64,000 nt of DNA, from UHGV virus genome UHGV-2031204; one strand, 5' to 3'. Source of the stretch: a virus. The position numbers and the translations under genes were made by a program. How positions within the stretch are numbered: the stretch's first letter is position 1; every line of letters begins with the position of its first letter. The notes below the pieces were generated by a model. It ran no database searches and was not told the origin of the DNA. It was given only the letters and a program-made list of their open reading frames with translations. Positions 3,876 to 32,262 of the stretch are shown here, piece by piece.

Positions 3876-4619
3876 ATGCTAAAAGTTTATGTCCCTCAAT
3901 TACAACGTATCAATCCCTCGTTGTTCGAGGGAATCTTTTATAAAATTTGGCCACAATACTTCAATGAACATTTGAAGGACCAGAAGTGGTCAACCGTACA
4001 AGGAGAATTCTTTTATACCGCACAGACGGCCTGCACAATCGTCTTTACTCGTCTCATCTCCGAAGTTATCGAGGCTGTCAATACCAACCGAAACTTTGAC
4101 CTTCGCGGCGTAGTCGAAATAGATCTCTCAGGGATCTTCGATAACTACGATTGTGATGACGCCGTATTCGAGCATTTCTCTTCTGAAGATGTCTGGGAAG
4201 CCGTTTATCAATGGCTAGAATACTACATGAATTTTCTATTCTCTCCAGAGATGTTAGAAAGTTTCAATAAAGCACTCTACCCCATTTATAACGACTTACT
4301 CAACGTTAAACAAACAAAGAACCTCGTTGGTTTCTGGTTTTCGATTTACGACGCCGAATGTACGTTGTGGGAAAAAGAAATGATTGCTTACGGGATAGAA
4401 CGGGGAGACTATGTTGAGCTTCATTGTGGTTTCTGGCCATTCAGTGACTACGAGAACGCACGGCTTGGTATCTCACGATTGTGGTCGTTTTACCTCTGTG
4501 AAGCTACGGGCGTTATTTACCTTGAAGACAGCGGAGCACAAATCCCTAATGGTGCTGTTGTAACTTACTGCCAGATTCGAGAAGATCGGGGTCGGGCAAT
4601 TTATCAGGAATATGCATAA
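3876..4619 (+). CDS. hypothetical protein
   Basis: Long ORF; stop overlaps next start (TAATG). Confidence 0.5.
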   Translation: MLKVYVPQLQRINPSLFEGIFYKIWPQYFNEHLKDQKWSTVQGEFFYTAQTACTIVFTRLISEVIEAVNTNRNFDLRGVVEIDLSGIFDNYDCDDAVFEHFSSEDVWEAVYQWLEYYMNFLFSPEMLESFNKALYPIYNDLLNVKQTKNLVGFWFSIYDAECTLWEKEMIAYGIERGDYVELHCGFWPFSDYENARLGISRLWSFYLCEATGVIYLEDSGAQIPNGAVVTYCQIREDRGRAIYQEYA

Positions 4620-5689: not shown

Positions 5690-6178
5690 ATGAACTTAAA
5701 TCATAACTTCGATATTCGTGACACCGATTTCGTACATGAATTTCTCAATAACGGAACGCGTGTAAGAAAAGAAATTGAAGAAAAGTTGACTCCGTTAGTT
5801 GTAGACACTCCCTGGATGGCGGACTACGCCGCGTCCTACTTTTCTTCTCAGAGCTTATTTGGATACATATTTATCATACTTGACTTCTTCGATCCATCAA
5901 GCAAGCGCATAACAGAAACAGGCGTGCGGCAACGCCTACGCCATGGTCGCAACGAGTTCTTAAAGAAAGTTTCTGATGCGTACCACATGGGACGATTCCC
6001 TACCCCGCTAGTCCCTTATACAGAACCGGAATGGGAAAAATTTTATACCCGGATTTGGGTTGAAGACTCTCTCTTGAACGAAATCGTAGAAATCATCAAG
6101 CGTAACGAAAACCAACTTGCTCTGCAACTATGGGAGTGGCTAAAAGCTAACTATCCCGATTACGTCAAAATAGATTAA
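5690..6178 (+). CDS. hypothetical protein
   Basis: Long ORF followed by terminator. Confidence 0.5.
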   Translation: MNLNHNFDIRDTDFVHEFLNNGTRVRKEIEEKLTPLVVDTPWMADYAASYFSSQSLFGYIFIILDFFDPSSKRITETGVRQRLRHGRNEFLKKVSDAYHMGRFPTPLVPYTEPEWEKFYTRIWVEDSLLNEIVEIIKRNENQLALQLWEWLKANYPDYVKID

Positions 6179-6183
6179 TAGAC

Positions 6184-6215
6184 ACCCTAGCTTCGGCTAG
6201 GGTTACTTTATTTTT
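6184..6215 (+). terminator. rho-independent terminator
   Basis: ACCCTAGC/GCTAGGGT stem, TTCG loop, T-run. Confidence 0.65.
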
Positions 6216-6237
6216 AACCATTTTAGGAGAATAAACC

Positions 6238-7164
6238 ATGTATTTGTACAAAAGTAAAAAAGTAAAAGGTATTAAAGACTGCCTTAGACAAATGGGGTCT
6301 CAGCATCTTGAAAATGTCATGGAAGAAAACCGAATAAAGGAAAATCCTGTCTCGAAATGGATAAAAAAGAATCGTAAGCATTTAACTAATGCCTTTATAC
6401 CCTACGACGCTGAGTTAGGTCTTAAAGATCCCCGTTCCCTTCACGCTCAAACATTGGCAATTGGATGGCTATACGGTGGTGCTTCCTTAATATCCGATCG
6501 AGCACTTAGAGAACTTGTTTTCGAGACTGAGATGCCCAGTAAATTCCCTGAAGAATGGTTAGACTTTATACCAACTTGGACTGTAGCAATCGATGTAGGT
6601 AAAGAAGATGAGACTTTCTTTCTCGGTTATCGAAAAAATGGGAATAGAAGGTTTATTATAATTGCTACAAATACTGATTACGGGTTAACAGAAGGTGTTA
6701 CCACGATCGCCACCTGCTCGTTAGAGATATGTAGTGTTGGAAACGGGCTTGTTGAAATCGATTATACAACTGGCGTACGGACCGAACAAGAGAAGACGTT
6801 ATGGCTATCATTGGCCAAAACCGCCATATCGTTGATATTTCTCTGTACGCTAATCCCGCCCAATCTCAGAGGGTCTTTCAATGACATTAAGTTCAAAGAA
6901 ATCAAAAAGAATGGTAGCATAAGTCACGAAATCAAACCTCGTGAACGTGACGTTAAAATAGACATCACGCCAGGACAAGTGAAATATCTAAAGGGATTTA
7001 ACACCGACTTGAAAACCATGGAAGGTATCAAACACGCCAAGGCTGCACATATCCGTCGCGCACACTGGCGCAGATATTGGGTCGGTCCAAGAGATGGGGA
7101 AAGGAAGAGAAAACTTTACTGGATTCCGCCTACATTTGTCCGTGGCTACGTACCCCACAATTAA
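6238..7164 (+). CDS. hypothetical protein, paralogue A (C-terminal HIRRAHWRRYW motif)
   Basis: TAGGAG RBS; C-terminus AHIRRAHWRRYWVGP...W.PP; similar to the next gene. Confidence 0.55.
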   Translation: MYLYKSKKVKGIKDCLRQMGSQHLENVMEENRIKENPVSKWIKKNRKHLTNAFIPYDAELGLKDPRSLHAQTLAIGWLYGGASLISDRALRELVFETEMPSKFPEEWLDFIPTWTVAIDVGKEDETFFLGYRKNGNRRFIIIATNTDYGLTEGVTTIATCSLEICSVGNGLVEIDYTTGVRTEQEKTLWLSLAKTAISLIFLCTLIPPNLRGSFNDIKFKEIKKNGSISHEIKPRERDVKIDITPGQVKYLKGFNTDLKTMEGIKHAKAAHIRRAHWRRYWVGPRDGERKRKLYWIPPTFVRGYVPHN

Positions 7165-7189
7165 GCTAAAAGTGTTTAGGAGTATTAAA

Positions 7190-8089
7190 ATGACAACGAA
7201 TAATAGACTTTACGGGAAAGCGCTAAGACGCATGAGCGAACAAATAGAAAAGGCGTACCAAACAATTCACGGATTAGATCAGTGCCGTTTTATTCGGTTC
7301 ATTAACGAGCATAAACGTCAAATACCCGTAACGTTTATGCCAGTTAAAGATCCGACCTATCGTGAGTATGGCGTTACCGAACAGATTCCCAGACTGATTA
7401 AGCAGTCCCTGGGACTAGGATGGCAATACGCTGCTGTTGAAATCATCTCGGATGAAGAACTGATGGCACTCTTAGCAAAAACTGAGAGACTAAAAAATAT
7501 CCCGTACTTCTGGATAGAAACCATCCCTTCATTTACTTTCTCGGTTACCGTAAATCTCGACGAATGCCCAATCACGTTATTTATCGGAAGACGTCTTTAC
7601 GAAGGTGAAGAAGTTCTCTTTGTGATGTCATGCGAAGAACATGACGAGACGGTATACATGGAGTTTGAGATTTACACGATCGATAAAAGTAATGATGATT
7701 TCGTGGAGTTAAAGCCGCTCCTTACTTCGGTTAAGGAGAATCAACGACTACTCGACGCGGTCTACATCGGGCTATATCTTTCGTCACGAATTAAACGAAC
7801 TGAGCGCGAGAAGAAAGAATTTCGCGGAAGGTCCATTCGTTATGTTCCTGATACAGAGATTCGCCCACGTAGTGAAGCGGTCGTTTTAGACGTAAGTCCG
7901 GTACAATGGGAAGATATAGAACAACAACGCAAGGAAGGACACGAGGTTTGTTTGGCGATTTATTGCTCAGCACATATCCGTCGTGCTCATTGGAAGCGTG
8001 TATGGTGTGGTAAAATGTCAGAAATGCGTTGGCGCGAATGGCGATGGATAGCGCCGAGTTACATCTCTGGATTTTATCGTGGAAAATAA
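7190..8089 (+). CDS. hypothetical protein, paralogue B (C-terminal HIRRAHWKRVW motif)
   Basis: TAGGAG RBS before ATG 7190 (track ORF 7094 starts inside the upstream gene); C-terminus AHIRRAHWKRVWCG. Confidence 0.55.
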   Translation: MTTNNRLYGKALRRMSEQIEKAYQTIHGLDQCRFIRFINEHKRQIPVTFMPVKDPTYREYGVTEQIPRLIKQSLGLGWQYAAVEIISDEELMALLAKTERLKNIPYFWIETIPSFTFSVTVNLDECPITLFIGRRLYEGEEVLFVMSCEEHDETVYMEFEIYTIDKSNDDFVELKPLLTSVKENQRLLDAVYIGLYLSSRIKRTEREKKEFRGRSIRYVPDTEIRPRSEAVVLDVSPVQWEDIEQQRKEGHEVCLAIYCSAHIRRAHWKRVWCGKMSEMRWREWRWIAPSYISGFYRGK

Positions 8090-8097
8090 ATAGTTTA

Positions 8098-8121
8098 CCC
8101 CTAGACCGTGTGGTCTAGGGG
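8098..8121. terminator. stem-loop between convergent genes, likely bidirectional terminator
   Basis: CCCCTAGACC/GGTCTAGGGG stem, GTGT loop, T-rich downstream on plus. Confidence 0.6.
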
Positions 8122-8134
8122 TAACTTTACTTTT

Positions 8135-8890
8135 TTATTTTTTGTTTGCCTTAAGCGCTTTTAAGCGTTCGGCAGTAACGTTCAGGCATTCGATTAACTC
8201 GTTGACCTGTTTCATGAACAAACCGAACAGCTCCACCCAATCAGAAGCAAAATCCAACATCATCGTCAGTTCTTTTGCTACATTCGGATGAATGTTTTGT
8301 TCGGACAAGATTTCTGACGTAGTACGAATAGACTCGATTGACTTGTCGATGTTCGTCCGTAGACGTTTTGTGATTTCAACGTTCAGTGCCTTAGCACGAT
8401 TGAACGCAACATCAATTTCAGACGCACTGTGATACGTCTTCTCAATTGGACGCTGGTCAATAACGTTGTTGGTGTACGATTTCGCTAATAAGTTAACCAG
8501 GTCTTTCGGGTTAACATTACGTAACGGTAAATTAACATTTTTGTAACGGAAACCAATCGGTAATGACAGTACCCCCACATCATGTGTAAGGGCCGAAAGT
8601 TGTTTATCGACCGGCAGCAGAATACCCGTATAGATGTTTTGCAGTGAACTCCATACAGATTCTAAGCGGTTCAAGTGATCCATCACGTAGGTATTAAACC
8701 CAGGTGGAACGATAACCAACATTCCCGCAAAGTGTAGGAATTTTTCTTGTTGCATCCACTTGGAAACGTCCGACATCTCGTCATAAGTGGTTAATGCAAT
8801 CTCTTGTTGAGGGCCACTGAACCCTTTCGGTAAGATTGCAGACGCTTTAGCGGCGAAGCTAGATAACGCTGCAAGTGGATTTACATTCAT
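8135..8890 (-). CDS. hypothetical protein (single minus-strand gene inside plus block)
   Basis: 251-aa ORF flanked by terminator and a divergent intergenic region. Confidence 0.5.
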   Translation of the reverse strand: MNVNPLAALSSFAAKASAILPKGFSGPQQEIALTTYDEMSDVSKWMQQEKFLHFAGMLVIVPPGFNTYVMDHLNRLESVWSSLQNIYTGILLPVDKQLSALTHDVGVLSLPIGFRYKNVNLPLRNVNPKDLVNLLAKSYTNNVIDQRPIEKTYHSASEIDVAFNRAKALNVEITKRLRTNIDKSIESIRTTSEILSEQNIHPNVAKELTMMLDFASDWVELFGLFMKQVNELIECLNVTAERLKALKANKK

Positions 8891-22875: not shown

Positions 22876-25047
22876 TTAACGTGCTTGCGGCAAGAAGATG
22901 TTCGCGATCTGGCGTGCTGGGATAACATCCAGTGCAGAGTTAATAAAACTACCCTGTGACCACGCGGATGCCCAGTTTTGTGCCCAGATGCTCGCATTAA
23001 TCTTGGCACGCGCAATGCCGTTAGTACGCTCGTACAACGTAGCACCACCTAAACACGCCATAAATTCACTAAATTTATTATCGTCATCCCACACACCTGT
23101 GTCGGTAACAATGGGCATGTACATAACGCGAGTCAAATCACGAATAGTAACAGAGATATCGCAAGACAGCGGAACGGAATCACCTGGCCGCCAACCTAAA
23201 CCACCCACACCGAATTGCAATGACATTGACGTCACCATCGCATTACGGAAAGAAAAGCGTCCTTGTGAGTAACACTCTAAATAGAACGGGTGAGTAAAAG
23301 ATTGTTTACCTGTAGCCAGCGGACAAACCGCAGCGATCCAGAATGACAGTGGAACGAGCAAGTCTTGGAAGATATCCAAATCGTTGCCAGACCAACAGCG
23401 TAACGGTATCGTTAACGTAATGTCATCACCCGACGCATCCGAACTGTCCCACACTTCTGGAAAGTCAATTACCGAAGAATTGTACAACGACATGATCCCT
23501 GTCAAATGTAAGGTGTCGGCAACGCCACGCATCGCGGACTTAATCCCGGAAACTAAAGCATCTACAGCGCTGAAACCCGTTTGACCACCGGATAAGTTGA
23601 CTTCTAACGAACGTGCTTTCGCGGTTAACGAGTTAACGGTACCAGAAATCTCTGGCTCTTTAGTAGAGTTAGAGAACGAACGAGAAACCGTGTCTTTAGC
23701 ATCGATACGCCACGATACCCATTGTGAACCATTACGGATTTCAGAAAGCGCATTTTCCTTAATACCGTCGATATAGTTTTTACCCATTTCGACGAAATCT
23801 TTAAAGAAACTACCTACATTTTCTTTAGAACCCGCATCTGCCCATTCTTGTATCTTAGCTATATCAGGGACATCCTCACCACCGATTTCGCTTTCAGCTT
23901 TTTCCGCAGCAGCCATGTTTGCTGCCATTGATTCTCGAAGTTTCTTTGTGTTCGCATCAATTTCATCTGCGGTACCGCCAGCGGTTAGTGTGCCAGTGAT
24001 CCCTTCAACCAACTTAGACTCTTGATCGTTAATATTTTCAAAAGGCGCTTTATAAGCGTTGTCTTTTTGAGCAACCGTTTCTAAGTCATGCAACGAAACT
24101 TCGAAACTACCCGCATCATTAATAACGCGTTTGGAGTACATCCCTTCGTTATAAAACGCACGTAGTTTTCTTGCAAATGCTTCTTCATCTCCACCGCTTT
24201 CAACACGCATTTGCTCTATGGCTTTGGTCTGATAATCCGCTAACGTTTGATAGCGGTTTATCATTCGATAAACGTCAAACTCCCCGTTATCTTTCCAGAT
24301 AGTAGGCAACGAAGCATACCAGTCTTGTTTATCATTGCTGTATGAATTTGTGCCATCGTCGGTATTTTCTTGTAGTTTGAAATTACCGAGCACGCCTGTG
24401 GGAACCAAACGACGATAAATAAGTTGCGTATTCAAGATGTTCTGTACAGCACGCAAATACAAATGCATCGTTGGCTTGACGTAATAGTAACGCGATGTTT
24501 GTTTGTTCAACACCGCTTTTAGAATTCGTGGTGTAATAAGAATAACCGCAAAGGCAACGGTACCTACAGTGGCCCATATTGCTGCTGCACCTAAATACGA
24601 AACCATCGTTCTCATCATACCTGGATAGTCACCAGTACGAGCCAAGTACGCTAGGTTGGAGTCGTACATGTTCGCAAAGAATGCGGCCATACCCAGATAT
24701 TTCGGTTTACCGAACCGACAGTGAACATAAAACGAATTCTGATTAATACTTTCGTAGAAATAAGTACCGAGTTTATACGAACCTGTTTCTCGGTTATTAG
24801 AGAATGTTTTGGTTTCGGCTCTCGGGTTGTCGGGTTGTGCAAATGCGCCAGTCGATGGCGGATCTGCAAACCATGTAAATTGGGGTGGTGTGTTAATCGC
24901 TTTACTGCCACCTAACGTGGTGTCCTCGAACGATAACATACCGTTGGAGTAGCGTCGCAAGGCCAGGAAACGTTCATCTCGGCCATCCAACACGCCGTTA
25001 AAGAGGCTTTTGACCCAGCTTGAGTCGTTAGCTGTTCTAGCGTCCAC
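22876..25047 (-). CDS. hypothetical membrane-associated protein, probable virion module (GTG start)
   Basis: 723-aa ORF with hydrophobic segment SYLGAAAIWATVGTVAFAVILI; GAGG RBS. Confidence 0.55.
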   Translation of the reverse strand: MDARTANDSSWVKSLFNGVLDGRDERFLALRRYSNGMLSFEDTTLGGSKAINTPPQFTWFADPPSTGAFAQPDNPRAETKTFSNNRETGSYKLGTYFYESINQNSFYVHCRFGKPKYLGMAAFFANMYDSNLAYLARTGDYPGMMRTMVSYLGAAAIWATVGTVAFAVILITPRILKAVLNKQTSRYYYVKPTMHLYLRAVQNILNTQLIYRRLVPTGVLGNFKLQENTDDGTNSYSNDKQDWYASLPTIWKDNGEFDVYRMINRYQTLADYQTKAIEQMRVESGGDEEAFARKLRAFYNEGMYSKRVINDAGSFEVSLHDLETVAQKDNAYKAPFENINDQESKLVEGITGTLTAGGTADEIDANTKKLRESMAANMAAAEKAESEIGGEDVPDIAKIQEWADAGSKENVGSFFKDFVEMGKNYIDGIKENALSEIRNGSQWVSWRIDAKDTVSRSFSNSTKEPEISGTVNSLTAKARSLEVNLSGGQTGFSAVDALVSGIKSAMRGVADTLHLTGIMSLYNSSVIDFPEVWDSSDASGDDITLTIPLRCWSGNDLDIFQDLLVPLSFWIAAVCPLATGKQSFTHPFYLECYSQGRFSFRNAMVTSMSLQFGVGGLGWRPGDSVPLSCDISVTIRDLTRVMYMPIVTDTGVWDDDNKFSEFMACLGGATLYERTNGIARAKINASIWAQNWASAWSQGSFINSALDVIPARQIANIFLPQAR

Positions 25048-25095: not shown

Positions 25096-28000
25096 TTACG
25101 CCCGTTTACGACCAACGTCGAGTTGGCGGGCAGGTTGTTCAACCGCGATGTTACGTGATGCTGATCCCGGAGCAGAAGCTGCCGAGGTCGCTGGGGATGG
25201 CTGCATAGCCTGTGGTCTCTGACGAAGAATTGTTACAATCTCTCTCAGATAGCCCGCAGACTCTTTTGCAACCGCCAGCTGCTGTACGCTGATCGGATCA
25301 CCACTGTTCACTGTTGGTGTAGTCTGTGCATCAGACGTTACCGTTGGTGCAGGACGTGCGGATTTCTCCATTTGCTGTCTAGCACCTTCTTTTACTTTGG
25401 CAACTTCCTCTTCGCCCAGACCGTCAGCACGCGCATTTTGACCCACCGTTTCAACAACGACAGACGCATCACTTGGCGTGACGTCACCGCCAGGGCTCGG
25501 CACAGCCGGACCACCACCCGTTGCAGCTTTAATATCTTCAGCGCCCATCGCACCTTTGTCTGCTAAAGCGGAGTCACGATTCGCCTCGTTCGCGGCTGGC
25601 AGGTTATCTGCCGGACCAGCAATAGACGGATCGTTAGCTGCGCCAGCAGCAATTGCAGGAGACGATGGAACTGGTGATAACCCTTTCGTCATGTTTTTCG
25701 CAGACGCAGGATTTGCTGCAATCTCGTTGGTTCCAACCGCACCCATACGGCGGTTCAGTTCCTCGACAACCTCACCGATCGTACGCATCCTAACGCGTTT
25801 CTTCCCGTTCATGATATAGAAAACACCTTCATTACCGTTAAGAACGGCAGGTGTGATGTACTTCACTTTGTCGGGCGACCCGTTAGGATTGGTTTTCCAG
25901 GCTTTAAGGAACTCAGCACCACCACCTGGACCTAAGAAGTGGTACAGGTACGCTACTGCCGGAGGTGGGGCAATTCCACCCAGATCCTTTTGTGCGGTCT
26001 TGATGTTGTCTCTAATGAAGTTAACACCTAAGATTGCGTTAGCCCACGGGTCGAACTGGTCGGTTTGTGGAATACCGTATCTTCGGGCGTACTGCTTCAT
26101 AACCCCATTCCAAGTGCCATTGGTAAATTGGAACAGGCCAGCGGCAGACATCTTATTACTTCTCGGTCTACCAGAGGATGCGCCAGGATAGTTGCCATAC
26201 TGTAAGCCAGATTCTGCTTGTGCCATTGCAATCGCAACAGATGGTGGAACACCCACCATGTTTGCCGCGTCAATAATCAATGACTTGATGGCTTCAGTAT
26301 TTGACTGCATCGGTTTACCGAGCATTTCCCTTGGGTATTTAGTCACTAAGGATTTGTAATCGCCGTCTTGTAACTCACCGAGGGTGATACCAGATTGTCC
26401 AGTGGAATACTTCGCATAGTTCCCTATACCCATATCGCCAACAACTTGTGATAAGTCACCTGGCGTTCCGTAGGACTGACCACCTTTCGGTAAGTATCCG
26501 TCGTTTGAAGCTTCGCCGTAGCTGTTAATTCCCTTATAACGCTCTTTGCTATCTTCATTCGTCTGATGGACACTGGAGTTTGTCGCTGGTGATTTCCATG
26601 TCATACGCTTAGGCGTGCTCGGTGTTTCTTTGAGCATGTTCCTTACAGCCAGATCGGGTTCTTTAGACAACTCTTTCAACGTTGCTAATTCTTCCCTCAC
26701 TGAACCTGCATCGGTATTCGCATCGCCTCCTAACGGGTTAAATGCGATTTCCCACACAGACTGACGGATACCCCCTTTCATGTTGTAAGCACCACGCATC
26801 ATCAGTGCCAGCTCATAGAGGAAACCCCCTGTGAGTTTCAAATCCAACGGATCGGCATGAGGTACGTAGCGTTTTACACCATAAACGTAGGTCATGAATA
26901 CAGGTAAGAAACGATTATAGAACCAGTTCTTGTAACGCTCCTCTTTTGGACCGCCAATTGCATCAGGCGCAATCGCAGAAATTGCTTTCTTCCAATCGCC
27001 CTTATAAATGCAATTTTTGATATCCGTGTCTTTCAACACTTCTTTCTCAAGCAATCTAAAGAGGGTACGTGTTGTCTCATTGACAGATTTCACACCGTAA
27101 GATTTCCAACGGACGGATTCCATCGCGTCCAAATCTTTCTTCTCAGGTAATGCTCTCCAGTCAACTTGAATTTGAACCTGTTCAGTACCGTCTTCCCAAC
27201 CCTCAGCTTTAGCAACAGTTTCGTTACGCTCGGTATCGTTCTTCGCGAGTACCTGCGAAGATTCTGCCACAGAAGCAACCTTATGCCCTTCAGGCACAGC
27301 ACCGGCTCCAGTTGTTTCCTTACGCTTATCATCACGACGCATGTTGATCGAACGGAAAACGCGATCTTGCGCCTCAACAACTTCTTCGCCTGACAAAAAT
27401 TCTGCCGGTGTGAAGGTCACGAAATCCCACGCTTTAGAGAACCAACCTTGGTTAACTTTACGGGGATCTGTCAGCGATTTAAAAGCAGGTGCATCTTTTG
27501 TCATCTTCATTTTGTTAAAGATGGTCAGCATGTCTGCTTTTGATACCTTCGACGGATTACCAACATCAGCTAACGCGATATCGTTATCCATTGAACGTAG
27601 CGCTGTAATCCAACGTAAATAGATCGGCACAAAACGTTGTAGCATAAACGCGGTAAACGCCAGCATTTCGCCTTTGTCTTCTACGTTAGTACCAAACCCT
27701 TCGGCCAGTTTCTTCACGTCGTCACCGGACAAACCACGCAACTGTGCTTGACCATTCTCTGTATAAGAGATGTACGGTTTCAAGTTGTCTTCTAAATAAC
27801 GCGCTTTTGCGCCGTCGTCGGAAGACCATTCATCATGATCTCTAAATCCGTACTGCGCCAATCGCATGTTATCCAGATACTGGGCATTTTCACGGGTTGC
27901 AGTTTTATACGCAAACCAAGACAGCGCAGCGCCTGCAGCGACCAAGCCAATAATCGGCCAGCCAACCGCAGTTACCACTGCAGAAGCCGCTGTTGCAACA

Positions 28001-31000
28001 GCACTCACCGCAGGGACAGCCAAACGGGTCACAGCAAACTTACCAACGTTCCACAACGCTTTGCCTGCAAACCCAACCGGCTTAAAGATTCCCCATTTTG
28101 CGACTTTACCTAAGATTGAACCCACTGTGCCTAAAATACTCACAATTGGTCCTACCAACGGCAGTCCTTTAAGGAAATCCATTACCCCACGTTTACCGCC
28201 TTTCTTCTCAGCCTCTTTCTTAGCCTTTTCCTCTTCCTTAGAACGACGACGGCGTCGGAAGAACTGGAAGTAATCGCGTTTTTCATCACTGGCAGGCGGT
28301 TTATTGCGTTGGCCGAACTTACTGAACATGGTTCTTAACAAACCATCCGAAGCACCTGCTTTTTCTGCAGAATCACGCATGGTATTAAACCACGACATTT
28401 CCTGAAGATTAACCATTCGGTTCAGGCGTTCCAATAAAGCTGACCCAACGCTACGGGCTTTCTGCTTCCCTTTATTAATCACACGTCCAGCGCTATCCGT
28501 TACGGTGTCTAAGTCTTCTTTTGCCGCATCGACAATACGTGTTTTAGACACCTTACCTCTTGCGTAGATGTGCTGACGATAAAACTCAGCAACGTCGTCA
28601 TCGCGTCCTGCTAAACGACTCTCCATTCGATAACGTGTTCCAATATCGTAACGCGGATCACGGAAGGTATCGACCATATCGCTTGCACGGCCACGGAAAC
28701 GGTCAAACCAACCTCGTGCTGCACCTCCCCAACGAGAAAGATGACCACCTACCGCACTGCGGTAACGGGATATCCTGTCACGCATCCGACCACGCCAATC
28801 CCGGAACCCTTGAAAATGTTCACGGAACCCTTCGCGTATGTCCTTAGCACGCTGGAATAATCCTTTAACTGAACTGGCCCCCGTATTCCGCTCCATCTGT
28901 TCTGTCCAGGTGTCATCTTCAGCTTCACCTGGCAATCTCCGGTTAAGGAGTTTGTAGATACGGATTAAGATGTGGTTAGTTTTACGGCCGTTCGACCATG
29001 AAAACACACTAAACCCACCGCCAGAACCCCCTTCCTTACGGTTCTGCCACCAACGTGTCAACGGGTTATCAGAAGCCAACTCTTTGAGTTTCTCAAACCC
29101 GCGTTTTGCATTGTTCCACAGACGAGCTGGCATTCCCGTTACACGGGAAATCATGCTCTGTAAACGGGTTTTCTCTGCGCCCTCTGGAACCTCATTTAGC
29201 CACTCACGTGCTTTCTCGAACAGGGAAGCCGCTTTAGGTGAAATGAAACCCAGAAGTTTCTTCGGTAAGGTCACAGCTTTATTTACTGCCGTTCCTGCTT
29301 TCCCAGAAATATACTGGAATAGCGCTTGAACTTTACCGCCTTTGTAGAAGCGTAGTTTACCTGCGGCAGCCAAATCAGCAGCCGCTAAGATTAAATTACC
29401 CGCTTCGTCGACAATATCACGTCCCAGTTTAATATCGTCGAGAGTTTTAAGTTGAACCAGCTTCTCAGTTTTCGGGTCAGCCTGGTAATATTCCCCAGCT
29501 TCTAAACGGCTTCCTTGTAATACGACGTTGCCGCGTTCATCGTAAATATCACGAACGCCTAAAACGCCTTTACCGAAAGCTACGGCAGAATTCCAACCCG
29601 TCGATAAAGTACCTGTTACTAACCCTTTCAGTCGGCTAAATACACCAGGACCTTCAGAGGAACCGCCTGAGAATTTCCCACGAATAAAACCACCTAATGC
29701 TTGTAGGCGATCTTTCCCGCGCAGGAACAGATTCTTACCAAACCGCCCTACGCCTGAACCGGTATCCCAAAGCACCCCGGCCCAGCGACGTAACAAACCT
29801 GTCTCACCCAGTACAATACGTTTGCGTTTACGACGACGTTTACGACCCGAGTCACTCGAGCTTTCAGATTCGTCACCGCCATCGCGACTACCGCCTAAAC
29901 TGGCTAGGAGAATGCCTTCCTCATCCATGTTCTTAACGTGTTTGAGGATGTCTTGCACTGTACTAGATTCTGGCTGTTTGCGTACGGCATCAATCAAACG
30001 GTCGAATTGCTGCTCCAGCCCAGCGTTCGTATCTGGACGACTGCTTAAAAGTTCAACAAAGTTAGTGGATTTCTCTCCATAAAGTACCGCAGCGAGTTGA
30101 CGTGCGCTTAAACCACGACCGCGACCACCTTTTCCACCACCACGTACGTTGGACAGTTCTTTGTCTTCAAAGCTCGGCTCTGCACCTGCACCCATTCGAC
30201 GCAAGTAATCGCCCAACGCAGAACCGTTTTGCAACTTACGCTGAATCTCTTGCTCACGGGTTAACGAACGTCCAGAACGGGTCTTACCCATCGACAGGTC
30301 GTTAAATAGCGTATAGGGATCGTTAATGTCCTTATCGACTTCGAAGATATCGTTCTTCGCATCGTATTTAAAAATGCCGGAATCACGAAGTGCGTTCTCG
30401 CCGTAAATCACAGACGCAGCATCAACCGTGTCCTGACGTGCACGAATCGTTGACTGGATAGCGGCGATTTTGTTTGAAATCGCGTTGCTCAGTTCATGGT
30501 GCCCACCAACCAGTTCCGCAGAACGGGCTTCTAAAACACCCTGAATCGCTTCCACAGCGTTTGCGTTCATGTAGCGATACATGTGCATCGGGTCTTTCAA
30601 TAAAGACCCTACATCGAACGCTTTCCCTTCTGAGGCACGAGATTCGATGTAGTCCGCTAATGCTTGACGTGTTTTCCGATCGAGCGTTTTATCTTTATCG
30701 ATAAAGTCAACAGTATCGTTGATGTAAGTCTGTAAACGTTTACGCTGGTCGTCATTAGCAACGGCCTTACGTACACGGTTGCCAATAACTTTACGATCCA
30801 CCATACCGCGCGTGGTCAGGTCATAAACCTGATCGTGGTGTTCACCATATCCACGACGAATAGATTTGTTAATCTCGGACAGTAACGTCGGAATAACTTC
30901 GGTGATGCTAAGGTAAGCTTTACGATCGAATTTCGCTGCGGCAGAAAGAGATTCCGCAGAACGATCGTCTAATGCTAACGTTTCGCGACGTAGCGGGTTA

Positions 31001-32262
31001 ACTAGCCCCAAATCGTGCATTAGTCGAAACAGATCAGCTAACGGGCCGCTTGTTTCTCCTGCTATTGCCGAGTTAGAAATAGACGACAAATTACCAAAAC
31101 CATACTTCGCCAACTGTAGGCGTTTCATGACTTCTGGATTTTTCTCTAACTCGCCACGAGTCCAGTTTTGAAGACGTTCGATCTGTGGCTGTAAGAGACG
31201 TTTTGCTAACCAACCACCTGCAAAACTTGCCGCTTTATTACGCGAGTTTGTGTTACGACGGTCAGGAGACAACGATGAGCTGTCCGACATGCCAAAGTCA
31301 TCTTCCTGAGCCATCCCTAGAACTTGTTCTAGAATCCCACGGCCATCGCTAAAGACGTTCGAGATTTTCTTCTTCGCATTTTCGCGAATCTGGTCAATGA
31401 AATTATCCGCGTAGTGTAAGGGGTTCATCCACTCCGCAGCTTTACGTTTTACATTAGCCCAACGAATTTCAGAAAACTCTTCCTTCGCGTAGTCTGGCAG
31501 CGCTGTGTTCTTAACGATGGCTTCTAATGCTGGTGTATTGCGTGCAAACTCGTCTTGTTTGAGTTTCGCAATATCTTGCAAAGCAAACAGCGTTCGATAC
31601 TGCAGCTCTAACTGCTTACGCTGAACATTTAACAACACGCCACGACTTAAGCTAGTCGTTAAGTTGACGTCTTTTGCAATACCGATTACTGTCTGGAACA
31701 GTGCGTCGGACTTCATGTCCTTAATCGTGTCACGCAAGCGGTCTTCAACCATCCCTTCTTGCGTTTCGCGTTGCTGGTCCGCTGTTTGCGGTGCGCCTGA
31801 GAACACGCTGTCCAGCTCACGATCCATCATCGCTTGTTTAGGATCGTAATTCCCATAGTCGATTTGATCGTTACGTGCCCACTTGTCGATTTTCCGTGTT
31901 ACGGATTCCGGTAAATACCGTTTCAGTGTTGGACCTAACTGTCTCGCTTGCATCTTAACGACGCGAGACGTCTTTTCAATCTCGTCTTTCGTATGGGCCA
32001 GAATGTCTTGACCTGCAGCTTTAACGTTTTGATAGCCTTCGTAGGCTTCTGCCGCAGGTTTAGGCATCCCTTTTAAAATAACCTGATCACGTTTGTTTTC
32101 GGGCCAGATAGTCGACAACGCCGACTTACGGGCAGCACGAAATGTGTCCATGACCGGGTTACGCGATTGGTCTTGTTGACGAGGGGGCTCATCAAAATCG
32201 TCCCAGTCGTCCATGTTATCAAGATCGATTTCATCGAAATCATCTTTACCTTTTTTAGCCAT
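25096..32262 (-). CDS. giant virion-type protein with lytic transglycosylase (SLT) domain
   Basis: 2388 aa; acidic N-terminus; central hydrophobic region; SLT motifs AESGLQYGN, GLFQFTNGTWNG, AYLYHFLGPGGG in C-terminal third. Confidence 0.7.
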   Translation of the reverse strand: MAKKGKDDFDEIDLDNMDDWDDFDEPPRQQDQSRNPVMDTFRAARKSALSTIWPENKRDQVILKGMPKPAAEAYEGYQNVKAAGQDILAHTKDEIEKTSRVVKMQARQLGPTLKRYLPESVTRKIDKWARNDQIDYGNYDPKQAMMDRELDSVFSGAPQTADQQRETQEGMVEDRLRDTIKDMKSDALFQTVIGIAKDVNLTTSLSRGVLLNVQRKQLELQYRTLFALQDIAKLKQDEFARNTPALEAIVKNTALPDYAKEEFSEIRWANVKRKAAEWMNPLHYADNFIDQIRENAKKKISNVFSDGRGILEQVLGMAQEDDFGMSDSSSLSPDRRNTNSRNKAASFAGGWLAKRLLQPQIERLQNWTRGELEKNPEVMKRLQLAKYGFGNLSSISNSAIAGETSGPLADLFRLMHDLGLVNPLRRETLALDDRSAESLSAAAKFDRKAYLSITEVIPTLLSEINKSIRRGYGEHHDQVYDLTTRGMVDRKVIGNRVRKAVANDDQRKRLQTYINDTVDFIDKDKTLDRKTRQALADYIESRASEGKAFDVGSLLKDPMHMYRYMNANAVEAIQGVLEARSAELVGGHHELSNAISNKIAAIQSTIRARQDTVDAASVIYGENALRDSGIFKYDAKNDIFEVDKDINDPYTLFNDLSMGKTRSGRSLTREQEIQRKLQNGSALGDYLRRMGAGAEPSFEDKELSNVRGGGKGGRGRGLSARQLAAVLYGEKSTNFVELLSSRPDTNAGLEQQFDRLIDAVRKQPESSTVQDILKHVKNMDEEGILLASLGGSRDGGDESESSSDSGRKRRRKRKRIVLGETGLLRRWAGVLWDTGSGVGRFGKNLFLRGKDRLQALGGFIRGKFSGGSSEGPGVFSRLKGLVTGTLSTGWNSAVAFGKGVLGVRDIYDERGNVVLQGSRLEAGEYYQADPKTEKLVQLKTLDDIKLGRDIVDEAGNLILAAADLAAAGKLRFYKGGKVQALFQYISGKAGTAVNKAVTLPKKLLGFISPKAASLFEKAREWLNEVPEGAEKTRLQSMISRVTGMPARLWNNAKRGFEKLKELASDNPLTRWWQNRKEGGSGGGFSVFSWSNGRKTNHILIRIYKLLNRRLPGEAEDDTWTEQMERNTGASSVKGLFQRAKDIREGFREHFQGFRDWRGRMRDRISRYRSAVGGHLSRWGGAARGWFDRFRGRASDMVDTFRDPRYDIGTRYRMESRLAGRDDDVAEFYRQHIYARGKVSKTRIVDAAKEDLDTVTDSAGRVINKGKQKARSVGSALLERLNRMVNLQEMSWFNTMRDSAEKAGASDGLLRTMFSKFGQRNKPPASDEKRDYFQFFRRRRRSKEEEKAKKEAEKKGGKRGVMDFLKGLPLVGPIVSILGTVGSILGKVAKWGIFKPVGFAGKALWNVGKFAVTRLAVPAVSAVATAASAVVTAVGWPIIGLVAAGAALSWFAYKTATRENAQYLDNMRLAQYGFRDHDEWSSDDGAKARYLEDNLKPYISYTENGQAQLRGLSGDDVKKLAEGFGTNVEDKGEMLAFTAFMLQRFVPIYLRWITALRSMDNDIALADVGNPSKVSKADMLTIFNKMKMTKDAPAFKSLTDPRKVNQGWFSKAWDFVTFTPAEFLSGEEVVEAQDRVFRSINMRRDDKRKETTGAGAVPEGHKVASVAESSQVLAKNDTERNETVAKAEGWEDGTEQVQIQVDWRALPEKKDLDAMESVRWKSYGVKSVNETTRTLFRLLEKEVLKDTDIKNCIYKGDWKKAISAIAPDAIGGPKEERYKNWFYNRFLPVFMTYVYGVKRYVPHADPLDLKLTGGFLYELALMMRGAYNMKGGIRQSVWEIAFNPLGGDANTDAGSVREELATLKELSKEPDLAVRNMLKETPSTPKRMTWKSPATNSSVHQTNEDSKERYKGINSYGEASNDGYLPKGGQSYGTPGDLSQVVGDMGIGNYAKYSTGQSGITLGELQDGDYKSLVTKYPREMLGKPMQSNTEAIKSLIIDAANMVGVPPSVAIAMAQAESGLQYGNYPGASSGRPRSNKMSAAGLFQFTNGTWNGVMKQYARRYGIPQTDQFDPWANAILGVNFIRDNIKTAQKDLGGIAPPPAVAYLYHFLGPGGGAEFLKAWKTNPNGSPDKVKYITPAVLNGNEGVFYIMNGKKRVRMRTIGEVVEELNRRMGAVGTNEIAANPASAKNMTKGLSPVPSSPAIAAGAANDPSIAGPADNLPAANEANRDSALADKGAMGAEDIKAATGGGPAVPSPGGDVTPSDASVVVETVGQNARADGLGEEEVAKVKEGARQQMEKSARPAPTVTSDAQTTPTVNSGDPISVQQLAVAKESAGYLREIVTILRQRPQAMQPSPATSAASAPGSASRNIAVEQPARQLDVGRKRA

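Follow-up and report, generated by a model that had tools for sequence, protein, structure and literature searches.

A tandem pair of AcrVA2/FinQ-like proteins, candidate target-specific gene silencers, in an accessory cassette of an SPN3US-like jumbo phage

The window, meaning the whole 64,000-nucleotide stretch of UHGV virus genome UHGV-2031204 that was analysed, encodes two adjacent proteins, ORF A and ORF B, which are paralogues of each other, belong by sequence and, for the modelled ORF A, by predicted fold to the known AcrVA2/FinQ family, and retain the residues that have been functionally tested in AcrVA2. Judged by their sequences, they are members of that family and not a new system. 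With a probability of approximately 0.6, the pair represents AcrVA2-type silencers in an accessory, terminator-bounded cassette of an SPN3US-like jumbo phage, and its likely function would be the target-specific, translation-coupled down-regulation of the mRNAs of two different targets other than Cas12a.

Locus layout and paralogy of the pair

ORF A (6238-7164, + strand) encodes 308 amino acids and is of the A-type, its nearest relative being the single-copy AcrVA2/FinQ-like gene of related phages, while ORF B (7190-8089, + strand) encodes 299 amino acids and is the B-type, more diverged paralogue. Direct reading of the sequence places a Shine-Dalgarno AGGAG at 6225-6229 (+), 8 nt 5' of the ORF A start codon, and another at 7178-7182 (+), 7 nt 5' of that of ORF B. 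The earlier note had described two adjacent reading frames of approximately 300 residues; they are present, with ORF A as it was given and the start of ORF B corrected to 7190. This ATG is the most likely start because of the AGGAG at 7178-7182 and because B-type orthologues are 294-299 aa long; their gene calls begin approximately 10 nt past the A-type stop. A start at 7094, giving a 331-aa form, was rejected, as it overlaps ORF A by 71 nt and has no backing from orthologues.

The pair lies, as previously proposed, in a discrete unit between a terminator and a bidirectional terminator. The left edge is a terminator-like hairpin found by the terminator scan at 6184-6203 on the + strand (ACCCTAGC-TTCG-GCTAGGGT, then a T-rich tail), which ends the preceding operon. 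The right edge is a bidirectional terminator-like hairpin at 8095-8124 (TTACCCCTAGACC-GTGT-GGTCTAGGGGTAA, with T-runs on each strand), also used by a convergent 251-aa gene (8135-8890, - strand; phrog_4682, an entry without a function label). Hairpins of the CCTAG...CTAGG form occur twice in the window, including the one at 6184-6203, against 0.13 expected. A sigma-70 promoter scan gave nothing above background, and no such signal is expected since the phage has its own RNA polymerase. The T-rich TTTATTTTWA 3' of the upstream hairpin was considered as a recurring promoter-like motif and discarded (three matches against 1.0 expected).

ORF A and ORF B are real, diverged paralogues, a relationship that sequence comparison confirms. 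BLASTP aligns them with E=6e-21 at 25% identity across approximately 300 aa, and their Smith-Waterman score of 202 compares with a mean of 33.7 for shuffled sequences (sd 4.8), giving z=35; when the C-terminal tail is left out, z is still 17 against shuffles. Identity over four regions is 20%, 34%, 16%, and 38%, in agreement with the idea of a conserved C-terminal module joined to variable N-terminal and central parts. The common blocks reported earlier (LAIGWLYGG/LGLGWQYAA and FLGYRKNG/FIGRRLYEG) were recovered in the translations, as were the near-identical tails (AHIRRAHWRRYWVGP...WIPP in one and AHIRRAHWKRVWCG...WIAP in the other), so that both proteins end in AHIRRAHW(R/K)RxWxG...WI.P. 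The HIRRAHW core was located by regular expression at 7048-7068 (+; H271-W277) in ORF A and at 7973-7993 (+; H262-W268) in ORF B. A search for H.R[RK].HW in the six-frame translation returned these two matches only, and the window has no third paralogue.

Membership of the AcrVA2/FinQ family

The His/Arg/Trp-rich C-terminal motif, which the earlier note had not recognised, is the H-x-R-R-x-H-W hallmark by which the AcrVA2/FinQ family (Pfam PF26125, "AcrVA2-like") is recognised, and the pair therefore belongs to a known kind. AcrVA2 is an anti-CRISPR from a Moraxella bovoculi prophage with structures 7CI1 and 7CI2 in the PDB (Marino et al., bioRxiv 10.1101/2022.11.29.518452). In a phmmer search of the PDB, the sole match of ORF A was 7CI1 (E=1.7e-4, via the tail), to which the ORF A core aligns as AcrVA2 H286-I-R288-R-G-H291-W, while ORF B, searched in its 331-aa form, gave only noise and did not reach AcrVA2; the membership of ORF B therefore follows from profiles, from its paralogy with ORF A, and from precomputed Pfam matches. 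A family profile of 50 sequences (A2), built without AcrVA2, matched 7CI1 along its full length (12-305 against 11-318; E=3.4e-40), and a profile of the jumbo-phage clade (A3) matched AcrVA2 with E=8.7e-6. A circular match through P0117, a 322-aa sequence suspected of being AcrVA2, was dismissed, as P0117 is not AcrVA2 and the clade-only profile still matches. A profile combining non-jumbo relatives with FinQ aligned by hhalign to ORF A with a probability of 99.5% (E=4e-23) and to ORF B with 98.2% (E=2.7e-14, 221 columns).

Database labels are consistent with this placement. Both proteins match phrog_6160 (E=1e-37 for ORF A and E=5.5e-20 for ORF B), an entry with no functional label, and PF26125 "AcrVA2-like" is the precomputed assignment of three A-type orthologues (P0001-P0003) and two B-type orthologues (P0004 and P0005). 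That label comes from precomputed tables only, as scanning ORF A, ORF B, and P0001-P0003 against a local Pfam copy gave nothing useful; NCBIfam had no match for either protein or for two distant relatives. Homologue searches by word index found only three close relatives of ORF A and two of ORF B, and the wider family needed an exhaustive HMMER search, in which the profile reached 623 cluster representatives at E<=1e-3. At the sensitivity of tblastn, a search against plasmids found no plasmid homologues and only one mis-filed jumbo phage genome. The view of a tandem pair drawn from a large, diversifying family is thus borne out (BLASTP E=6e-21, z=35, and 623 representatives).

The AlphaFold model of ORF A (pLDDT 82, pTM 0.78) was obtained with an alignment of family members as input and depends on it, since an alignment of seven sequences gave a poor model (pLDDT 46). 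In this model, ORF A is predicted to adopt the three-domain fold of AcrVA2. The structural alignment puts identity between the two at approximately 13%, and their sequences are unrelated in the N-terminal and central parts. They share a length of approximately 300-320 aa, a tail of the form H-I-R-R-x-H-W-x-x-Y/V-W-x-G...W-x-P, and carriage by mobile elements, here a jumbo phage of the phiKZ type. AcrVA2 is a prophage gene, whereas the tandem pair belongs to a nucleus-forming jumbo phage that is virulent or persistent, and has no acrVA1 or aca gene among the neighbours identified.

FinQ of IncI plasmids (e.g., R621a) is the second characterized relative. It aligns with the jumbo-clade profile by hhalign at 98% (E=1.5e-13, 197 columns), has the equivalent tail RPHIRRGHWHTYWTG...IWLPP, and represents use of the family beyond Cas12a with lowered target mRNA as the read-out. 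It differs in being a single-copy plasmid gene that acts on F-plasmid transfer genes and in its N-terminal part; the jumbo-phage clade forms a branch of its own.

The residues of AcrVA2 whose mutation weakens or abolishes the down-regulation of Cas12a mRNA, namely, W79, D89, H286, R288, and H291 (10.1101/2022.11.29.518452), correspond to W77, D87, H271, R273, and H276 in ORF A and to W78, D88, H262, R264, and H267 in ORF B, in a register taken from the alignments and with the W-x9-D spacing kept in both. In ORF A numbering, H271, R273, H276, W281, G283, and W295 are invariant in orthologues and in 50 distant relatives, and A-type orthologues are 93% identical in the tail against 57-70% elsewhere. 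The suspicion that the alignment might fall to shuffle level or that the motif might be lost in orthologues is thus answered by z=35 and by an invariant motif.

The notion that the resemblance arose by chance, or that the proteins are structural components of the virion sharing a motif without a common function, has a negligible probability. Genes for virion proteins lie a few kb away, and nothing else was found that speaks for it. Chance is refuted by z=35 against shuffles, by the size of the family (623 cluster representatives), and by its invariant motif, and the genes are absent from the close relatives SPN3US and Stratton, which is unexpected for a structural gene. Nothing points to a virion role or to a processed form of either protein.

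An accessory slot in SPN3US-like phages

The window derives from a phiKZ-type jumbo phage of the SPN3US or "Seoul-like" group, as seen from its genes for an RNA polymerase beta subunit, tail sheath, terminase, and a UvsX-like protein, and it shares synteny with Asesino and with SPN3US-like phages. The slot holds no copy in SPN3US and Stratton, one copy in EC001 (conspecific with SPN3US) and Asesino, and two copies in the window, L003-L008, and L016. One two-copy relative was deposited as an Enterobacter ludwigii "plasmid". Between genomes, the pair is 62-68% identical (ORF A up to 90%), while flanking core genes are 92-96% identical. The hairpin at 6184-6203 is kept at the equivalent position in the two-copy relatives L003-L008, and the zero-copy phages SPN3US and Stratton have a single hairpin at the junction corresponding to 8095-8124. 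Zero, one, or two copies in one hairpin-bounded slot mark a fast-evolving accessory cassette; the locus is mosaic and has the boundaries of a transcription unit.

Single-copy homologues in Seoulvirus and Erskinevirus (EC001 MGA_211, Asesino gp235, ChrisDB, and SaP7) occupy the same slot, flanked on one side by a variable block of small genes and on the other by the convergent 251-aa gene, which lies upstream of the UvsX-like gene, and match ORF A and ORF B in length and tail. They differ in being present once and not twice and in their identity of 25-31%, and all are annotated as hypothetical. As far as PHROG matches show, the surroundings are not of the acr type, the neighbours being small hypothetical genes, the phrog_4682 gene, and the UvsX-like recombinase gene. 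For the 162-aa protein encoded upstream, PHROG gave no match at E<=1e-5.

Proposed silencing function and its targets

AcrVA2 is known to silence a bacterial defence gene whose mRNA is destroyed during translation, with a specificity that tracks the amino-acid and not the nucleotide sequence of the target (10.1101/2022.11.29.518452). Its H286, R288, and H291 alanine mutants keep Cas12a binding and lose mRNA down-regulation (10.1101/2022.11.29.518452; this preprint is the main source for the mechanism). In AcrVA2 the tail is therefore the effector module, with target recognition located elsewhere, and the earlier suggestion of a partner-binding tail is not supported, since the tail mutants still bind Cas12a. 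By extension, recognition of a given target polypeptide by ORF A or ORF B would most likely fall to the variable domains (N-terminal and central) and probably occur during its translation, after which the invariant H-x-R-R-x-H-W...W-x-G...W-I-P-P module would trigger loss of the target mRNA. The outcome would be to stop one particular protein, of the host or of a rival mobile element, from being made, the finished protein not being inhibited. For the pair itself, we infer the mRNA-down-regulating activity, the recognition of nascent chains, and the nature of the targets; two copies with no more than approximately 25% identity outside the tail imply two different targets.

A common fold might instead serve a different activity, in which the basic His/Arg/Trp tail binds or cuts nucleic acid, for example as a nuclease or an RNA-binding regulator acting on transcripts of the phage or the host, with no recognition of a nascent peptide. 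This is improbable, even though the mRNA-destroying step of AcrVA2 is not established in the literature, the strongly basic tail has invariant H-x-R...H residues that resemble catalytic ones, and all that is described for FinQ is a decrease in tra mRNA. AcrVA2 is without resemblance to known enzymes, and its specificity is set by the amino acids and not the nucleotides of its target (10.1101/2022.11.29.518452). Such a nucleic-acid role is close to what the earlier note suggested.

As for what translation-coupled silencers of this type might act on, Seoul-like phages are known from Enterobacteriaceae and Erwiniaceae hosts and, in isolates, often persist over generations (preprint 10.1101/2024.12.31.630880). 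Cas12a is probably not among the targets, given hosts believed to be without it, and the targets would presumably differ from that of AcrVA2. To our knowledge, Enterobacteriaceae and Erwiniaceae are without Cas12a, and type V-A systems are not typical there. That the two proteins are true Cas12a anti-CRISPRs, which bind the N-terminal LSKT peptide of Cas12a and remove cas12a mRNA, is accordingly a very improbable reading of the pair. It draws on the family, fold, and catalytic-type residues common to both and on the statement that huge-phage proteins clustering with AcrVA2 "may function as Acrs" (PMC7162821). It is opposed by the approximately 13% identity to AcrVA2 outside the tail, where putative specificity regions are not conserved, and by the phage nucleus, which already shields DNA from DNA-targeting nucleases (PMC7162821; PMC9365700). 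AcrVA2 homologues, moreover, occur on plasmids and megaphages, typically where Cas12a is absent, and FinQ has another target, lowering the mRNA of F-plasmid transfer genes (Marino et al., 10.1101/2022.11.29.518452). The same authors proposed that approximately 1,800 AcrVA2 homologues act likewise on other targets (10.1101/2022.11.29.518452).

The pair could also be FinQ-like weapons against rival elements, with the same chemistry turned on plasmids or prophages that share the cell, or on superinfecting phages, and not on host defence genes; this is unlikely, though it is the best placed of the alternatives. FinQ is homologous (hhalign 98%) and lowers F-plasmid transfer-gene mRNA, an inhibitor of protein synthesis is most effective in long-term coexistence, and the persistence of Seoul-like phages, together with the relative deposited as a "plasmid", makes long coexistence with other elements plausible. 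A lytic or persistent jumbo phage, however, has a less obvious need to block conjugation. The FinQ-like and the preferred explanations differ in target class only.

A more specific version of the preferred silencer reading is put forward tentatively. The two AcrVA2-like proteins may be cytoplasmic, nascent-chain-directed silencers, each acting against a different host defence gene of a non-CRISPR (or RNA-targeting) kind or against a gene of a rival element, and the slot with zero, one, or two copies may be a site at which specificities are swapped.

The family, its motif, and its occurrence in megaphages are already known, and the finding is otherwise ordinary. AcrVA2 is so far the sole reported protein of a bacterial virus that silences a gene via the amino-acid sequence of the product in translation, and besides Cas12a, the sole described effect on a target is the poorly defined one of FinQ on F-plasmid tra mRNA. 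The strongly diverged natural pair places two presumably distinct specificities within one tractable phage group, and hosts such as Salmonella, E. coli, Erwinia, and Enterobacter, together with natural zero- and one-copy comparators, offer a convenient entry to new targets. If the reading is true, discovery of these targets would reveal AcrVA2-type, polypeptide-addressed mRNA destruction as a general, re-targetable counter-defence and not a Cas12a oddity. The assignment also corrects the annotation of genes that are "hypothetical" in every deposited relative. A fold match in BFVD, from Erwinia phage RisingSun, carries the label "putative mycothiosynthase".

The tandem pair and its place in the AcrVA2/FinQ family

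Two same-strand ORFs are located within 6238-8089 of the window. ORF A (6238-7164) encodes 308 aa and has AGGAG on its 5' side at 6225-6229, while ORF B (7190-8089) encodes 299 aa. ORF B was delimited on the basis of the AGGAG at 7178-7182 preceding the ATG at 7190, together with its orthologues, which are 294-299 aa long and start approximately 10 nt past the A-type stop. A start at 7094 from a mechanical ORF list was rejected, as it overlaps ORF A by 71 nt and disagrees with these orthologue lengths. The adjacent paralogue pair claimed in the earlier note was borne out: the proteins align over nearly their full length with 25% identity (BLASTP, E=6e-21), and their Smith-Waterman score of 202 is far above the 33.7 ± 4.8 of 1000 shuffles (z=35). 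Aligning the proteins without their C-terminal tails still gives z=17, so the paralogy rests on more than the motif. Six-frame translation of the window contains exactly two instances of the pattern H.R[RK].HW, and no third copy was found by tblastn within the window. The pair is bounded by a terminator-like hairpin 5' of ORF A (6184-6203) and a bidirectional one 3' of ORF B (8095-8124), in agreement with the placement proposed earlier.

ORF A and ORF B each have a match to PHROG 6160, a group lacking a functional assignment, and local Pfam and NCBIfam scans of the proteins gave no useful match. When ORF A was searched against all PDB sequences (phmmer), the sole match was AcrVA2, an anti-CRISPR protein of a Moraxella bovoculi prophage (7CI1, E=1.7e-4), with an alignment passing through AHIRRAHWRRYWVGP...YWIPPTFV in ORF A and PHIRRGHWHGYWQGT...RWQPAVFV in AcrVA2. 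PF26125, "AcrVA2-like", is a precomputed Pfam match on close homologues of both ORFs in the contig tables. When a profile of the two ORFs and their orthologues was used for exhaustive searching with HMMER, it retrieved 623 cluster representatives at E<=1e-3, mostly of 300-380 aa, many of them aligned from approximately position 75 to the C-terminus. H271, R273, H276, W281, G283 and W295 are invariant in a 50-sequence family alignment, the profile of which, built without AcrVA2 itself, matches AcrVA2 over its full length (E=3.4e-40); a profile of the jumbo-phage clade only gives E=8.7e-6. In hhalign, the jumbo-phage-clade profile matches FinQ, the fertility inhibitor, of plasmid R621a (probability 98%, E=1.5e-13), and a profile of the non-jumbo relatives with FinQ matches ORF A (99.5%, E=4e-23) and ORF B (98.2%, E=2.7e-14). 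The ORF A fold was seen again among predicted viral structures of Erwinia phages Yoloswag and RisingSun, Dickeya phage JA13 and siphoviruses. On every feature testable here, ORF A and ORF B belong to the AcrVA2/FinQ family.

In BFVD, A0A223LH45 of Erwinia phage vB_EamM_RisingSun resembles the ORF A model in structure (Foldseek, E=5e-13). It is labelled "Putative mycothiosynthase", probably in error for an AcrVA2-like protein. The homologues deposited for Asesino, EC001, ChrisDB and SaP7 are all labelled "hypothetical protein". Another carrier of the family is the viral contig IMGVR_UViG_3300045988_161253 (105,643 bp), which encodes the AcrVA2-type C-terminal motif at 4001-4114, approximately 1.7 kb from the contig end, with 58% identity over residues 267-303.

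Conserved residues and a proposed mode of action

What has been described of the mechanism of the AcrVA2 family comes from a preprint, conference reports and a 2026 review. AcrVA2 lowers Cas12a mRNA and protein by more than 10-fold, whatever the promoter or codon usage, by recognizing conserved N-terminal residues of the Cas12a polypeptide; H286A, R288A and H291A abolish the down-regulation and keep Cas12a binding, while W79A and D89A weaken activity (10.1101/2022.11.29.518452; PMC13131331). Its homologue FinQ reduces F-plasmid tra mRNA, and other homologues occur on plasmids and megaphages, mostly with no Cas12a present (10.1101/2022.11.29.518452; PMC13131331). In the alignment, W79, D89, H286, R288 and H291 of AcrVA2 correspond to W77, D87, H271, R273 and H276 of ORF A and to W78, D88, H262, R264 and H267 of ORF B. 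As all five mutated residues are kept in both ORFs, the tail motif, which the earlier note did not recognize, is the effector signature of the AcrVA2/FinQ family.

The variable regions of each ORF would recognize that ORF's own target polypeptide, and its tail would then trigger loss of the target's mRNA. Between ORF A and ORF B, identity is 20% in the N-terminus, 34% in the W/D/P-P block, 16% in the central domain and 38% in the tail; between ORF A and its 67%-identical orthologues, the respective values are 69-70%, 62-66%, 57-58% and 93%. The central domain is thus the least and the tail the most conserved region, a pattern that, at the level of sequence, fits recognition by variable regions and a tail effector. 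Cas12a is an unlikely target of either ORF, because the hosts, to our knowledge, are without Cas12a and the recognition regions are not conserved. Since an inhibitor of biogenesis does not remove pre-existing protein (Marino et al., 10.1101/2022.11.29.518452), it would serve best where coexistence is long-lasting, which would be in keeping with the reported persistence of Seoul-like phages.

The source phage and its relatives

The window was placed among the SPN3US/Asesino jumbo phages (Seoulvirus, Erskinevirus) by megablast and tblastn, with approximately 73% nucleotide identity to this group in the UvsX-like region. Its PHROG matches include the beta subunit of the phage multisubunit RNA polymerase, tail sheath, large terminase, RNase H and a UvsX-like recombinase. 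A promoter scan limited to sigma-70 sites gave no signal above background, as would be expected of a phage with an RNA polymerase of its own. SPN3US carries a diverged chimallin gene (PMC9365700). All 299 "Seoul-like" phages surveyed encode chimallin, have Enterobacteriaceae and Erwiniaceae as hosts and frequently persist in bacterial isolates (10.1101/2024.12.31.630880). On the minus strand of the window, a 2388-aa ORF (25096-32262) adjoins a 723-aa virion-protein-like ORF (22876-25047) matching phrog_3181, which has no functional label, and more weakly phrog_20401, "virion structural protein".

The window gene order and both paralogues are also present in NZ_CP134650.1, the 222,441-bp "plasmid unnamed1" of Enterobacter ludwigii. 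This record, deposited as a non-mobilizable plasmid, is syntenic with the window at RNase H, the AcrVA2-like pair and the UvsX-like gene. Most likely, it is the genome of a Seoul-like jumbo phage that persists in the manner described in 10.1101/2024.12.31.630880 (preprint), and it suggests Enterobacter as one host genus of the window's clade. The IMG/VR contig L016 (220,786 bp), from the same metagenome as the motif-bearing 105,643-bp contig, is 94-100% identical to the window at most genes compared here. The exceptions are a 247-aa gene (3876-4619, 82%) and a 162-aa gene directly 5' of the pair (5690-6178, 43%); the latter, with no PHROG match at E<=1e-5, looks like an allele replacement.

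Copy number and divergence at a hairpin-bounded slot

The slot holding the pair is flanked by a block of small, variable genes on one side and, on the other, by a convergent gene of 251 aa located before the UvsX-like gene. It contains no copy in SPN3US and Stratton, one in Asesino and in EC001 (same species as SPN3US), and two in the window, L016 and further relatives (L003-L008, of which L008 is the E. ludwigii record). One copy was also assigned to ChrisDB, SaP7, JN03 and pEa_SNUABM_4/8 by a single tblastn match per record, irrespective of slot position. The AcrVA2 family, its motif, crystal structure and megaphage occurrence have already been published, as has the proposal of other targets, and a Pfam family exists. 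New here are the assignment of the Seoul-like/Erskinevirus "hypothetical protein" (PHROG 6160) to the AcrVA2/FinQ family, the strongly diverged tandem pair, and the 0/1/2-copy polymorphism with hairpin boundaries; the pair and its polymorphism offer a useful entry point for experiments.

In SPN3US and Stratton, which have no copy, the slot junction carries a single bidirectional hairpin, and Asesino has near-identical copies of this hairpin, with the stem TACCCACTCC/GGAGTGGGTA, on each side of its single gene (L001, 4810-4835 and 5810-5835). In the window's clade, the pair is flanked by two hairpins sharing a CCCTAG/CTAGGG stem, the only two such hairpins in the 64-kb window (0.13 expected). 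These hairpins lie at 6184-6203 and 8095-8124 in the window and are also present in L003-L008; the upstream hairpin of EC001 is of unrelated sequence. The downstream hairpin varies among the two-copy relatives by inversion of its loop (ACC-TTGT-GGT vs ACC-ACAA-GGT). The slot looks like a terminator-bounded cassette open to gain and loss, and the shared stems, the single hairpin of zero-copy phages and the inverted loop suggest that this perhaps takes place by recombination between the repeated terminators.

In a neighbour-joining tree, the A-type and single-copy genes group together (69% bootstrap), with the B-type genes as their sister inside one jumbo-phage clade (66%). On this moderate support, the single-copy gene probably has its orthologue in ORF A, and ORF B is probably an old duplicate that diverges faster. 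Compared with its two-copy relatives, the window shows 91-96% identity in core neighbour genes and 62-63% in ORF B. For ORF A, identity to the window is 90% in L004 and L006 and 68% in the E. ludwigii record, at equal distance of the neighbouring genes in all three, which indicates mosaicism.
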